From: Escherichia coli | Lineage (GTDB): Bacteria; Pseudomonadota; Gammaproteobacteria; Enterobacterales; Enterobacteriaceae | Assembly: GCF_003334255.1 (NCBI RefSeq) | Contig: NZ_QOWU01000137.1 | Strand: one strand, 5' to 3' | Length of the DNA stretch: 2,272 nucleotides | Shown here: in pieces, positions 1 to 2,272 of the stretch | Numbering within the stretch: the stretch's first letter is position 1 | Layout of the letters: each line of letters begins with the position of its first letter | Program-made: the position numbers and the translations under genes | Notes under the pieces: generated by a model | What the model was told of the DNA's origin: nothing | The model's database searches: none | What the model saw: only the letters and a program-made list of their open reading frames with translations

Positions 1-4
1 GAGT

Positions 5-51
5 AGAGTAAGAGGCAGGGCGTAGTCGGACTATTTCCCTGCCTCTCCTCC
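5..51 (-). ncRNA. Group II intron domain VI with bulged branch-point adenosine (minus-strand A at window position 9)
   Basis: Minus strand GGAGAGGCAGGG ... CCCUGCCUCUUACUCU forms a long stem of 10 contiguous Watson-Crick pairs plus extensions. A single unpaired A on the 3' strand sits 7-8 nt from the window edge, matching the usual branch point to 3' splice site distance. Confidence 0.7.
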
Positions 52-53
52 CC

Positions 54-87
54 GAACCGGACGTGCACCTTTCAGCGCATCCGGCTC
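54..87 (-). ncRNA. Group II intron domain V (catalytic core hairpin)
   Basis: Minus strand reads GAGCCGGAUGCGCUGAAAGGUGCACGUCCGGUUC, 34 nt. It matches the domain V consensus: AGC catalytic triad near the 5' end, 9-bp lower stem including a G-U pair, 2-nt AC bulge on the 3' strand, 4-bp upper stem, and a UGAAAG loop. Differences from the common consensus keep base pairing intact. Confidence 0.92.
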
Positions 88-92
88 TCCAT

Positions 93-1616
93 TTAAATGC
101 TGGCGAACGCCATTGCCACTTCTGTAAAGCGCGATGTATACGTGTTTCTGGTCTCCGTCCTCAGATAGGGATTACCTTCGGGTAGCCGCCAGCGGAACAG
201 CTTCTTGCCTTGCCCCACCAACCGGTACAGTATTTCGCCGCTGAGCTTGCCGTGATTGGTTTTACCAAATAAAACCCACGTTTTGCTCTGACCCGGTTTC
301 GGTGATTTACACCACCACCTCATCAGGGAAGCGATACCTGTACGGTATTTGCGGGCCAGCCAGTGAGCCAGCTTCCAGAACACGACACGGTCGATATAAC
401 TGAAGACTTTGGCCTTAAAATCAACGAACTGATAGAACATGGCCCAGCCTTTCAGTTTTCGGTTGAGTTGTTCAGCCATATCGACTTTGCTTTCACTGTA
501 GTTGCCTGATAACAGTGCTGTCAGCGATGCGGCGAAGTTTCTGGCTTTCTCCTGCGGGATCGTTGAGACCACTCGCATCTCGCCATAACGACTGCGTTTG
601 CGAATGATCCTGTGCCCCAGAAAGATAAAGCCGTCATTAACATGGGTGATTTTAGTCTTATCCATGTTCAGCCTGAGTTTCAGACTGCCTTCGAGCACAC
701 CCCGACACTCCTCCCTGATGGCTTCCGCCTGTGCTTTGGTGCCTTTGACGATGAGGACAAAATCATCGGCATAGCGGCAGTACGCCACCGCGGGTTTCCA
801 CTGCCAGTTTTCTCTGACCGCCGTACTTCGGCCCCGTTGGATACTGTTATTCCAGTACCACCGATCTTTTCTGGCTTTCCCGCTCAGGTAGCGCTCATGC
901 AGGTATTGATCGAACTCATTCAGCATGATGTTCGATAATAGCGGCGATATAACACCGCCCTGTGGCACACCTTCACTGGCCGCCCGAAAGAGACCGACAT
1001 CGATATGTCCCGCCTTGATGGTTTTCCACAGCAGAGTCATGAAACGTGCGTCACTGATCCTGCGGCGTACAGCCTTCATCAGCAGTCGATGATGTACGGT
1101 GTCGAAGTAACTGGACAGGTCGCCTTCAATCACCCAGCGTCCCCGGGTTTCACCACAGTCTGTGAGCTGTAATTTCACCGTGCGGATCGCGTGGTGGACA
1201 CTGCGCTCAGGCCGGAAGCCATATGAGAGCGTATGAAAATCACTCTCCCATATCGGCTCCATCGCCATCAGCATGGCCCGCTGAACAATACGATCCCGCA
1301 ACGCGGGGATACCCAGTGGTCGCAGTTTGCCGTTGCTTTTAGGGATGTAAACCCGTCTGGCGGGCAAGGGCTGGTAGTGGCCTGAGAGTAATTCATCCCT
1401 GAGGATTTGCAGCTCAACAGCCAGTCTGGCCTGTAGCATTGTTTTGTTCACGCCATCAACGCCGGGGGTATGGGCCCCCTTTGATGAAAGCGTGATCCGC
1501 GCCGCTTCAGCCAGCCATTCTGGTTGTGTTATCAGACGCAGCAGCCGTTGAATCCGTAGGGACGGATCGGTGGCTGCCCATGTGGCAAGCTTGCGTTGCA
1601 TTTCGCTGATTATCAA
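93..1616 (-). CDS. Group II intron-encoded protein: reverse transcriptase / maturase, apparently without an endonuclease domain
   Basis: 507-aa ORF with the group II RT motifs in order: TPGVDGV (aa 50-56), PLGIP (100-104), SYGFRPERS (131-139), DLSSYFDTV (166-174), PQGGVISPLLSNIML (218-232), YADD (282-285, codons at 762..773), KITHVNDGFIFLG (322-334). A maturase/thumb-like region follows with GWAMFYQF (390-397). Stop codon TAA at 93..95. The C-terminal 70 aa contain one Cys and no HNH/zinc-finger pattern. The track start at 1616 is a TTG codon; the first ATG is 5 codons downstream (1599..1601). Confidence 0.93.
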   Translation of the reverse strand: MIISEMQRKLATWAATDPSLRIQRLLRLITQPEWLAEAARITLSSKGAHTPGVDGVNKTMLQARLAVELQILRDELLSGHYQPLPARRVYIPKSNGKLRPLGIPALRDRIVQRAMLMAMEPIWESDFHTLSYGFRPERSVHHAIRTVKLQLTDCGETRGRWVIEGDLSSYFDTVHHRLLMKAVRRRISDARFMTLLWKTIKAGHIDVGLFRAASEGVPQGGVISPLLSNIMLNEFDQYLHERYLSGKARKDRWYWNNSIQRGRSTAVRENWQWKPAVAYCRYADDFVLIVKGTKAQAEAIREECRGVLEGSLKLRLNMDKTKITHVNDGFIFLGHRIIRKRSRYGEMRVVSTIPQEKARNFAASLTALLSGNYSESKVDMAEQLNRKLKGWAMFYQFVDFKAKVFSYIDRVVFWKLAHWLARKYRTGIASLMRWWCKSPKPGQSKTWVLFGKTNHGKLSGEILYRLVGQGKKLFRWRLPEGNPYLRTETRNTYTSRFTEVAMAFASI

Positions 1617-2272
1617 AGGTCTTCACCTCGTTAGGTCAGTTAATTCACGTCGCAAACACATTCAAACTGCTTCCCTTCGCCATGTAATGGGCTTTCCCCA
1701 TCGCGGACTACTACGGAAGCTCCGCCAGCCAGCGCGTCATCGGAGCCATGCCCCCTTAACATCCGTCGCTGACCTTCCCCGGTTTACCTGCCTGGACTCA
1801 GGCATACTGAGGAGGCTGCCCGTCGCACTCTTTATCCTTGCTTGCCGCAAGTTGGCAGAAGTCAGCAACGCAAGTGTGATAGACGCTGCTGCCCCGGTGT
1901 TTCGCATACATGTCAAAACACCTTCGACCGGCAGTGCTTACGTATCACTGCCAGTTCCTCCTGCACGGCCTGTCAGATCACGTAGGCCGTGGTGACGTTT
2001 TCAACCCACAGAGGCGGATTAACGGGTTCATGTTCTTCAGCCTTTCAGTACTTAACCTTGAGGATCATCTCGGCTTAGTGATCTCGCCTCAATCCCCGTT
2101 GTCAGCGGGTTACATCACCCTGCGGGCATGCCGCAGGTCACTGCCGCTCAGGTTCTCCACCGTCACACCCGGTGGGATTGTTGGGTTTCTCATCGTGAGT
2201 TACCGGTTCAATATTCCAGACAGACTCGCGGTTCATTTAAGCATCCATGCCCGCCCTGAACTCCGGGCACAC
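1617..2272 (-). ncRNA. Group II intron ribozyme 5' portion (domains I-III and the 5' part of domain IV)
   Basis: About 650 nt of non-coding, hairpin-rich sequence between the GUGUG 5' end and the IEP start. This is the usual size and position for domains I-III. Individual domains and exon-binding sites were not mapped because no exon sequence is available. Confidence 0.75.
1624..1629 (-). promoter_or_regulatory. Putative Shine-Dalgarno sequence (GAGGUG) for the IEP
   Basis: Minus strand reads CGAGGTGAAGACCT-TTG: GAGGTG lies 7 nt upstream of the TTG at 1616 and about 22 nt upstream of the first in-frame ATG. The spacing favours the TTG start. Confidence 0.45.

Follow-up and report, generated by a model that had tools for sequence, protein, structure and literature searches.

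A full-length copy of the catalogued group II intron E.c.I4 from Escherichia coli, very likely of bacterial class A

A group II intron on the minus strand and its boundaries

The window, by which we mean the whole 2,272-nucleotide stretch of Escherichia coli DNA analyzed here, carries a group II intron with its encoded reverse transcriptase (RT)/maturase on the minus strand (Table 1). The initial annotation had described an apparently intact intron filling the entire window. This is essentially right, but bases 1 and 2 already belong to the 3' exon of the interrupted transposase gene. The intron starts with the GUGUG that had been pointed out and ends in CUAC, so that the group II end rule (5' GUGYG and 3' AY) holds at the junction defined by the uninterrupted allele. 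Promoter and terminator scans of the window returned no more than expected by chance, and an Rfam match to CRISPR-DR8 (E=0.87) was dismissed as a chance hit. On the plus strand, open reading frames of up to 141 aa lie antisense to the intron; we found no supporting evidence for them.

Exact boundaries could be set because uninterrupted IS3-family alleles exist. Comparison with intron-less loci, a check proposed with the initial annotation, showed that such an allele (...ACTTACG/TCAGCACA..., where the slash marks the junction) equals the joined exons with 100% identity over 160 nt, and moving the junction by one nucleotide in either direction no longer reproduces it. The intron-less alleles, the end of the Rfam match described below, and the published coordinates of E.c.I4 all agree on an intron end at window position 3.

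The element is already known: it is the catalogued intron E.c.I4, real but ordinary. Copies in EC958 and on Shigella flexneri plasmids are 100% identical to the window, and three catalogued E.c.I4 copies share 99.78 to 99.87% nucleotide identity with it, as judged at the coordinates in Table S3 of PMC3522654. The copy in strain IAI39 encodes the same intron-encoded protein (IEP) accession, WP_001189111.1. With 99.8 to 100% nucleotide identity, a length of 2270 nt, the same hosts, and IS3 targets of the IS629/IS911 type, E.c.I4 shows no substantial difference from the window, which adds 2 nt of exon; S.f.I1 is the 99%-identical Shigella counterpart of E.c.I4. The literature places E.c.I4 in class A, which has no D/En region (class definition from PMC3552965), and we assign the window copy to class A because it is nearly identical to E.c.I4. 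We regard the window as very likely the reverse complement of one full-length E.c.I4 copy, of bacterial class A and living in IS3-family transposase genes. The earlier reading of a full-length intron of a known element class, free of frameshifts and stops, was thus borne out and can be given a name.

Table 1. Features of the intron copy, in window coordinates; intron position p = 2273 - window coordinate
Feature	Position	Strand	Remarks
Whole group II intron E.c.I4	3..2272	minus	2270 nt
3' exon start (TC) of interrupted transposase gene	1..2	minus	TC follows the intron in all three E. coli target types
5' splice-site consensus GUGUG	2268..2272	minus	aligned column reads GUGYG in relatives
Domain I	1778..2267	minus	intron 6-495; RNAalifold consensus on 36 sequences, covariation
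EBS2 ACGUC	1994..1998	minus	intron 275-279; loop of hairpin closed by GGY/RCC
EBS1 hairpin	1930..1952	minus	intron 321-343; compensatory changes at every stem pair (helix 18)
EBS1 CGUAAG	1937..1942	minus	intron 331-336
Domain II	1724..1777	minus	intron 496-549; compensatory changes in 9/14 pairs (helices 22-23)
Domain III	1669..1720	minus	intron 553-604; compensatory changes in 10/16 pairs (helices 24-26)
Domain IV basal stem, 5' strand	1659..1667	minus	intron 606-614; pairs with window 91..99
Small hairpin AGGUGAAGACCU with Shine-Dalgarno	1617..1628	minus	immediately 5' of the start codon; helix 27
IEP gene, RT/maturase	93..1616	minus	507 codons from the probable TTG start, uninterrupted
RT domain	606..1346	minus	aa 91-337
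YADD	762..773	minus	aa 282-285
Maturase/X domain	339..536	minus	aa 361-426
Domain IV basal stem, 3' strand	91..99	minus	intron 2174-2182; includes IEP stop codon UAA
Domain V	54..87	minus	intron 2186-2219; AGC triad, GAAA loop
Domain VI	5..51	minus	~intron 2222-2268; basal helix with compensatory A-U/G-C changes

The intron-encoded protein

The uninterrupted 507-codon RT/maturase with its YADD motif, the central element of the initial annotation, is present as described and lies between the two basal strands of domain IV. Searched with a group II RT profile, as had been suggested, the IEP matches TIGR04416 (group_II_RT_mat) at 340.9 bits, above the model's own cutoff of 300, and Pfam recognizes RVT_1 over the full model together with GIIM. 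These were the only two domains found in the IEP, with no hit to an HNH or other endonuclease domain, and the last 81 residues contain no HNH or zinc motif and only one Cys and one His. The IEP thus has the class A trait of lacking a recognizable DNA-binding/endonuclease region. Of the proteins with solved structures, the group II RTs LtrA (2e-52, with the detected homology confined to the RT region) and GsI-IIC (5e-50) are closest. LtrA cuts the bottom strand and carries DNA-binding and HNH endonuclease domains, whereas the E.c.I4 IEP ends about 80 residues after domain X without them.

RefSeq starts the annotated ltrA gene at an ATG at window position 1601, five codons downstream of the TTG, which gives a protein of 502 aa. 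We prefer the 507-codon reading because 62 of 64 relatives keep the TTG, which is preceded by an invariant Shine-Dalgarno sequence, so that TTG rather than the RefSeq ATG is probably the start. Comparison with relatives gave dN/dS values of 0.07 to 0.12, and the IEP is, by this sequence measure, under purifying selection.

RNA structure

When the 5' 663 nt were folded as a single sequence by minimum free energy, the z-score was weak (-2.1) and the structure unreliable; comparative analysis was used instead, with an RNAalifold consensus on 36 sequences and 80 relatives from other bacteria behind the covariation analysis. The consensus fold contains 155 pairs, 106 of which show compensatory changes. 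In this fold 95.9% of cells are paired, compared with 34 to 43% when the partners are slid against each other, and none of 500 shuffles reached 95.9%. All six RNA domains of the group II secondary structure, arranged about a central wheel, are present, support extending to domains IV, V, and VI, and the window copy retains every helix and motif conserved among the 36 relatives. The basal stem of domain IV comprises 9 bp with compensatory changes in the same alignment.

Domain V, a 34-nt hairpin with a 2-nt bulge, is nearly invariant among the 36 relatives, with one pair showing a compensatory G-C/U-A change. The covariance model scan recommended at the outset placed the domain V/VI model RF00029 at 89..3 on the minus strand with 64.9 bits (gathering score, 40; E=6e-12), a match that encloses the canonical domain V originally proposed, and two plastid D5 models also match domain V. 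The branch-point A that had been claimed for domain VI corresponds to intron position 2264 (window position 9), where it is bulged, unpaired, invariant, and 7 nt from the 3' end. Directly upstream of the IEP start codon, the small hairpin that contains the Shine-Dalgarno sequence includes GAGGUGAAGACCU, which is invariant or almost so across the 36 relatives. DIVa of Ll.LtrB offers an analogue for a role in IEP binding or translational control, and by that analogy the hairpin is a putative site for either.

As a rival reading, the element could be another kind of RT element lying in an insertion sequence (IS) by chance, for example a retron, a group II-like RT, or a DRT defence RT. The RT domain does match retron (54 bits) and Drt (51 bits) models, but both scores fall far under the respective cutoffs of 235 and 200, whereas the score for the group II model clears its threshold. 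The protein has a maturase domain, the domain V/VI covariance model exceeds its threshold, the six-domain fold is backed by covariation, and the intron-less allele differs by the precise absence of the 2270 nt. We consider such an origin exceedingly improbable and treat the element as a group II intron.

Target recognition by EBS1 and EBS2

Two domain I loops of E.c.I4, EBS1 and EBS2, are complementary to its 5' exon. The intron inserts on the sense strand, one base into the codon that follows the D-x-T-Y motif of the transposase, a motif that includes the first catalytic Asp. EBS1 pairs with the Thr-Tyr codons and the next base of the 5' exon. At the IS629-type site, where the exon ends in CUUACG, all six EBS1 positions form Watson-Crick pairs, and 96 to 98% of relatives keep the pairing between the invariant GUA of EBS1 and the Tyr codon UAY. 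The partner of EBS2 is the Asp codon GAY plus the two bases after it, with four of five pairs at the IS629-type site (GAUUU) and five of five at the IS911 site (GAUGU); its partner exon positions -11 to -13 are paired in 100% of relatives. Core EBS1/EBS2 pairs are retained in 91 to 100% of relatives, and in one of them (L015) EBS2 reads UCAUC, a three-base compensatory change that fits its IS6 target GAUGA. Since a G stands opposite the pyrimidine wobble base in both the EBS1 and EBS2 loops, either synonymous codon is accepted. The A at intron position 330, immediately 5' of EBS1, and the U at exon position +1 are both invariant and are candidates for an EBS3 or delta contact.

The pairing signal is carried only by exon positions fixed by the codons. 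No significant pairing was seen at exon positions -1 and -5, where 35 pairs compare with 31.6 ± 3.8 after shuffling, or at -10, where 10 of 17 compare with 7.9 ± 1.5. Because pairing at these three positions stays at the level of the shuffled controls, part of the target choice rests elsewhere, possibly with the IEP. Two other EBS2 candidates were rejected. AGAUCA at intron 189-194, complementary to UGAUUU, is a conserved structural stretch that does not track the exon in relatives, and the hairpin loop UGAUGU at intron 156-161 matches the exon in only about 18 to 20 of 61 relatives and is conserved whatever the target.

Comparison with known group II introns

Several characterized introns share parts of this organization. 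RmInt1 of Sinorhizobium meliloti (class D, IIB3) is likewise an intron with an endonuclease-less RT/maturase that homes into an insertion sequence and proliferates within the genome, and it is the model for fork-dependent priming, PMC8914252 describing cDNA priming by the nascent strand at the replication fork for this En-less intron. It belongs to a different phylogenetic class, however, and targets one specific IS (ISRm2011-2), whereas the target of E.c.I4 is a protein motif common to several IS families. Ll.LtrB of Lactococcus lactis (mitochondrial-like class, IIA; 5g2x) resembles E.c.I4 in EBS1/EBS2 recognition, in the position of the IEP within domain IV, and in lariat splicing. Class C (IIC) introns have an endonuclease-less IEP and insert in or near mobile DNA, as E.c.I4 does. 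IIC introns are shorter, lack EBS2, and recognize terminator or attC stem-loops; in contrast, the domain I of E.c.I4 is of full size, an EBS2 is present, and the target is coding sequence.

Distribution and host insertion sequences

Of 5,426 complete E. coli genomes, about half carry E.c.I4, at 5,497 places in total and at up to 20 places per genome. The intron also matches 2186 plasmid records, 1208 of which are predicted to be conjugative. Its expected hosts are the IS3-family elements IS629, IS911, ISEc16, and ISEc31. All identical copies examined lie inside IS3-family transposase genes; annotated as ltrA, they split IS3/IS629-family transposase genes into two halves and occur on chromosomal islands, prophages, and plasmids, in agreement with the initial suggestion that such a copy marks mobile or accessory DNA. 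The exon bases visible in the window itself are TC only, which is compatible with all three E. coli target types, and near-identical copies occupy three different IS3-type targets in E. coli. When the exons are joined, the reading frame is open in most relatives, typically for about 150 aa per side. One copy with chimeric flanks was seen.

The window itself adds a single copy to a catalogued intron already labeled ltrA by automated annotation. E.c.I4 nonetheless reliably marks IS3-rich accessory DNA in E. coli, Shigella, and Klebsiella plasmids, and its 2.3-kb repeats can drive recombination. Because the transposase genes are interrupted, intron-bearing IS629 and IS911 copies need splicing to function.

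Probable activity and proposed mobility

The window copy is intact in sequence and probably still mobile. We infer that E.c.I4 is active from its three IS3-type targets, its occurrence at up to 20 places per genome, the low dN/dS, and published strain-specific proliferation, and the population data are in favor. For IAI39, 15 strain-specific copies with less than 1% divergence have been published. Conversely, this full-length and intact-looking copy might be functionally silent, a passive cargo of insertion sequences, islands, and plasmids that neither splices nor homes to a meaningful extent. A search of the literature found no splicing or mobility experiment on E.c.I4, the movement of host IS, islands, and plasmids (more than half of the matching plasmid records being predicted conjugative, as given above) can explain much of the spread, and several genomes combine one copy with many empty sites, as in S. 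flexneri 301, for which one copy and 42 free sites are published. Passive carriage could not, however, have placed near-identical copies in three different IS3-type sequences, nor does silence fit the IAI39 copies, the purifying selection on the IEP, or the conservation in the window copy of all helices and motifs shared by the 36 relatives. We judge silence unlikely and favor an intron that is still mobile. Empty target sites beside a single copy occur in many genomes, for example at IS600 in L088, and fit low or conditional activity.

By analogy with the established group II pathway, mobility would begin with transcription through the IS, followed by IEP-assisted lariat splicing via the bulged A of domain VI, which would restore the transposase reading frame. 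The lariat-protein particle would then reverse-splice into another IS copy whose D-x-T-Y site is empty. As the IEP has no endonuclease domain and there would be no opposite-strand cut, mobility needs a primer made elsewhere, and the nascent DNA strand at the replication fork may prime cDNA synthesis as in RmInt1, where this route has been shown experimentally; for E.c.I4 it is proposed from the resemblance.

Which nascent strand would serve is a separate matter. With the element and its target recognition as described, the leading strand might prime, reverse splicing taking place ahead of the fork into double-stranded DNA instead of by the lagging-strand route of RmInt1. In IAI39, which shows the largest recent burst, about 12 of the 15 copies are oriented head-on to replication and about 3 co-directionally (positions from Table S3 of PMC3522654; in the record, which begins at thrL, oriC is located past 4.39 Mb), which is the geometry expected for leading-strand priming. 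The sample is small, though, with a p of about 0.04 including four terminus-proximal copies and about 0.07 excluding them, and it has no empty-site control; several copies probably arrived along with their islands; and 55989, E24377A, and ED1a lean in the opposite direction (about 8 co-directional and about 3 head-on, the same coordinate convention being assumed). Leading-strand priming is a possibility that we hold to be doubtful.

Probable shared targeting across the class A lineage

The literature records class A as "three nearly identical members"; the relatives gathered here number 189. In all of the roughly 60 relatives with readable flanks, whose IEPs are 66 to 96% identical and which come from gamma-, alpha-, and betaproteobacteria and several other phyla, the intron lies at the same point of the catalytic motif W..D-x-T-Y/hydrophobic (the slash marks the insertion point), within transposase genes of IS3, IS6, and IS481-like families. 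Nearly all pairing of EBS1 and EBS2 falls on codon positions fixed by the protein sequence, and G faces the Y wobble bases, which would allow one intron to invade unrelated IS families. On balance, we lean toward the view that the whole class A lineage is a specialized parasite of DDE (rve-type) transposase genes and that the class is far larger than catalogued. This pattern extends the published observation of E.c.I4 in IS3 elements and opens no new question, and the reading of a protein motif through its invariable codon positions may be of interest for retroelement target choice and targetron design.

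Identity, Boundaries, and Encoded Protein

The window holds a genuine but ordinary and previously known element: a full-length, intact group II intron, which the initial annotation observed and interpreted correctly apart from small corrections to strand, boundaries, and element name. The element reads on the (-) strand; the reverse complement of the window starts with GUGUGCCCGG and ends with ...CUCUUACUCUAC, then UC. Copies 100% identical to the window are found in E. coli EC958 and on S. flexneri plasmids, where they split "IS3 family transposase" annotations in two and their open reading frame (ORF) is annotated as ltrA (WP_001189111.1), in keeping with the earlier suggestion that such a copy marks mobile DNA. 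The flanks of these copies read ...GATTTTACTTACG^GTGTG... on the 5' side and ...CTCTAC^TCAGCACATGG... on the 3' side (carets mark junctions), confirming the proposed GUGUG 5' end. We joined 80 nt of either flank and searched E. coli genomes; the joined 160 nt were 100% identical to IS3-family transposase genes that are not interrupted and keep their programmed frameshift, and moving the junction by 1 base either way did not recreate this intron-less IS3-family allele. Because only the unshifted junction does so, the intron is window 3..2272 (2,270 nt) and does not fill the window as first proposed; bases 1-2 are exon. The match to RF00029, the Rfam group II intron model of domains V and VI (window 89..3, (-) strand; 64.9 bits, gathering score 40, E=6e-12), likewise stops at base 3. 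Within it, two plastid domain V models match window 87..54, exactly where domain V had been placed.

The sole long ORF of the window (1616..93, (-) strand) is an uninterrupted frame of 507 codons with a TTG start. As had been predicted of a group II reverse transcriptase (RT)/maturase, it exceeds the cutoff of the corresponding NCBIfam profile (TIGR04416; 340.9 bits against 300), and its YADD motif lies at aa 282-285. The only Pfam domains in the protein are a full-length RVT_1 at aa 91-337 and, for the maturase, GIIM at aa 361-426. The nearest solved structures are group II RTs (LtrA, 2e-52; GsI-IIC RT, 5e-50), and a retron or Drt identity was rejected, as those models score far under their cutoffs. 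The C-terminal 81 residues of this intron-encoded protein (IEP) include a single Cys and a single His but no HNH signature; thus, an endonuclease domain is absent. RefSeq starts ltrA at an ATG at window 1601 (region 1599-1616, (-) strand; WP_001189111.1). The TTG at window 1616 lies 7 nt downstream of an invariant GAGGUGA and is kept in 62/64 relatives, and residues 2 to 5 are conserved, whereas five relatives have Leu, Ile, or Gln in place of the RefSeq start Met; the longer reading of 507 codons is therefore probably preferable, and the RefSeq protein five residues short.

The element belongs, as anticipated, to a known class. Leclercq and Cordaux (PMC3522654) described E.c.I4 insertions in IS629, IS911, ISEc16, and ISEc31, with Table S3 coordinates spanning 2270-2271 nt. 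Three of these coordinates were fetched (IAI39, pUTI89, and E24377A), and the copies are 99.78-99.87% identical to the full-length window; the IAI39 copy shares its protein accession and end points. Toro and co-workers (PMC3552965) assign E.c.I4 and S.f.I1 to bacterial class A, which they describe as lacking a recognizable D/En region and comprising merely three nearly identical members. Given this identity to catalogued copies and the published placement, the window sequence corresponds to a copy of the named class A intron E.c.I4.

The intron is abundant: matches were found in 3,208 records and in 2,669 of 5,426 complete E. coli genomes, at up to 20 places per genome, and in 2,722 records the best match reaches 99% identity or more. 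A further 2,186 plasmid records matched, chiefly from Escherichia, Klebsiella, Salmonella, and Enterobacter. Two E. coli genome records (NZ_CP024243.1 and NZ_CP042892.1) hold otherwise identical copies, each split by an insertion sequence that landed in the intron: an IS4-family (IS421) or IS5-family transposase is annotated between the two pieces.

Ribozyme Fold

The 5' 620 to 670 nt of 36 relatives were aligned, yielding a consensus fold of 155 pairs, of which 106 show at least one compensatory double change. Paired cells amounted to 95.9%, compared with 34-43% when the 3' partners were slid by 1 to 3 columns, and none of 500 shuffles matched the observed values. In a second alignment, domain V is almost invariant, and domain VI has a covarying basal helix and an invariant bulged A 7 nt from the end, consistent with the branch A noted earlier. 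The UAA stop codon of the IEP is located within the covariation-supported basal stem of domain IV, so the ORF occupies domain IV down to the final base pair. A small, essentially invariant hairpin, AGGUGAAGACCU, carries the Shine-Dalgarno sequence and abuts the IEP start codon. The window copy retains all features of domains I to III, the domain IV stem, and domains V and VI.

Features of the intron (intron position = 2273 - window coordinate)
Feature	Position	Strand	Basis
Domain I	intron 6-495	(-)	consensus fold
EBS2, ACGUC	intron 275-279	(-)	hairpin loop, closing GGY/RCC
EBS1, CGUAAG	intron 331-336	(-)	hairpin loop, stem covarying at every pair
Domain II	intron 496-549	(-)	consensus fold
Domain III	intron 553-604	(-)	consensus fold
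Domain IV opening	intron 606	(-)	consensus fold
Domain IV basal stem, 9 bp	intron 606-614 with 2174-2182 (window 1659-1667 / 91-99)	(-)	second alignment, covariation
3' exon, first two bases	window 1-2	(-)	intron-less allele comparison

Scanning within the element revealed no promoter-like or terminator-like sites above chance. A weak CRISPR-DR8 (Rfam) hit antisense to domain I (window 2086-2119, (+) strand; 19.1 bits where the gathering score is 39; E=0.87) was dismissed as chance.

Relatives and Size of the Class

Scanning one genome per bacterial species identified 189 loci encoding a relative of the E.c.I4 IEP, of which 80 (L007 to L086), with 66-96% amino acid identity to the E.c.I4 protein, were kept. 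They derive from gamma-, alpha-, and betaproteobacteria and several other phyla, with hosts including Rhizobium, Novosphingobium, Halomonas, Shewanella, Photobacterium, Legionella, and Nitrospira. Relatives with both ends on the contig span 2224-2288 nt and have GUGYG and AY ends. In the literature, class A is described as three nearly identical members or as a "paucity" (PMC3552965, PMC4244168, and PMC7306698).

Two retained loci (L007 and L008) have identical introns and flanks under the labels Citrobacter sp. 18056 and Chryseobacterium sp. 18061, from one study, which is likely cross-contamination between assemblies; their target is unusual, reading D-V-T-D and not D-x-T-Y. The Erwinia endophytica locus (L014:1345-3465) is truncated, with the protein match ending at residue 464 before AT-rich unrelated DNA, and its ORF also has an early stop.

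Target Recognition across IS Families

Among relatives, the 5' exon follows the consensus TGG N6 GAY NTN ACN TAY N (exact in 51/61), and the first base of the 3' exon is T in 68/71. Across the junction of the joined exons, the translation is W..D-x-T-Y^[I/V/L]...G..YL..V.D, in a frame usually open for approximately 150 residues on either side. This motif surrounds the first catalytic Asp in DDE transposases of the rve type, and the insertion point is therefore constant, between bases 1 and 2 of the codon following Tyr. In the domain I loops complementary to the 5' exon, EBS1 is Watson-Crick complementary at all six positions to the CUUACG that ends the 5' exon at the IS629-type site, and EBS2 pairs at 4/5 positions with IS629 GAUUU and at 5/5 with IS911 GAUGU. 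Pairing tracks the codons: within EBS1, the invariant GUA pairs with UAY, the Tyr codon, placing its G across from the wobble C or U, and within EBS2, the invariant GUC pairs likewise with GAY, the Asp codon. Pairing across relatives is 91-100% at codon-fixed exon positions, and 32-59% at exon positions -1, -5, and -10, which is not above shuffled controls.

Among the sampled host genes, five score as IS3 family, all above cutoff, and one scores as IS6 family. The latter, in a Halioglobus MAG (L015:564-2840), reads D-E-T-Y and scores 209.9 bits against NF033587 (cutoff, 125); EBS2 there is UCAUC, altered at 3/5 bases and perfectly matched to the target GAUGA. A further host gene (L041) scores as IS481/IS3-like, slightly under both cutoffs. 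Targeting of IS3 elements by E.c.I4 is already published, as credited to Han 2004 in the citation of PMC3522654 (its ref. 67); the apparent class-wide targeting of D-x-T-Y in several IS families, together with the size of the class, extends that observation and is all that we add to the catalogues consulted.

Like L015, seven loci (L041, L047, L051, L058, L065, L066, and L075) have their intron at the D-x-T-Y point of transposase genes that are not of the IS3 family; L041 has a junction motif of the "WQTDFTY^LKVIGWGW" type, which the other six share. In E. coli IAI39, an intact IS600 (L088:9251-10407) is separated by 6 kb from an IS629 that carries the intron; the IS600 site, GACCTGACGTATG^TT, is empty, although its predicted pairing of 5/6 for EBS1 and 4/5 for EBS2 is approximately equal to that of occupied IS911-type sites.

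Activity and Mobility

Near-identical copies reside in three E. coli targets, namely, the IS629-type site, IS911 (GGTGATGTGACCTATA^TCTGG), and a third site (GGAGATATTACGTATA^TCTGGGC), for which passive carriage cannot account. The IEP has a dN/dS of 0.07-0.12 against relatives 86-96% identical and is under purifying selection. Independent, strain-specific proliferations of E.c.I4 with <1% divergence have been reported, as have many genomes with a single copy beside empty sites (PMC3522654). We found no splicing or mobility experiment on E.c.I4 in the searchable literature. For the window copy, which comes without host gene or host promoter, the evidence for activity is favorable but indirect.

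Target pairing and position, fold, and protein domain content are shown by the comparisons above, and mobility would be expected to follow the established group II pathway: maturase-assisted lariat splicing, reverse splicing by which the RNP enters an empty site, and cDNA synthesis that may be primed by the nascent strand at the replication fork. Fork priming is proposed because the endonuclease is absent. RmInt1 similarly lacks the endonuclease; its nascent-strand priming at the fork has been demonstrated, with the lagging-strand template, as described in the abstract of PMC8914252, whereas priming of E.c.I4 is proposed by analogy. For IAI39 (NC_011750), whose record begins at thrL with oriC beyond 4.39 Mb, Table S3 of PMC3522654 lists 15 copies; approximately 12 of these run head-on to replication, in a small sample of occupied sites alone. 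This geometry would fit leading-strand priming, but the opposite tendency is seen in 55989, E24377A, and ED1a, and several copies probably arrived with islands.

One IAI39 copy (L088:27090-29360; NC_011750 1584588-1586857, (-) strand) has an IS629-type 5' exon and a 3' exon from another IS3-type element (TCTGGGCAGGAAATCG), which looks like recombination between two intron copies in different insertion sequences.
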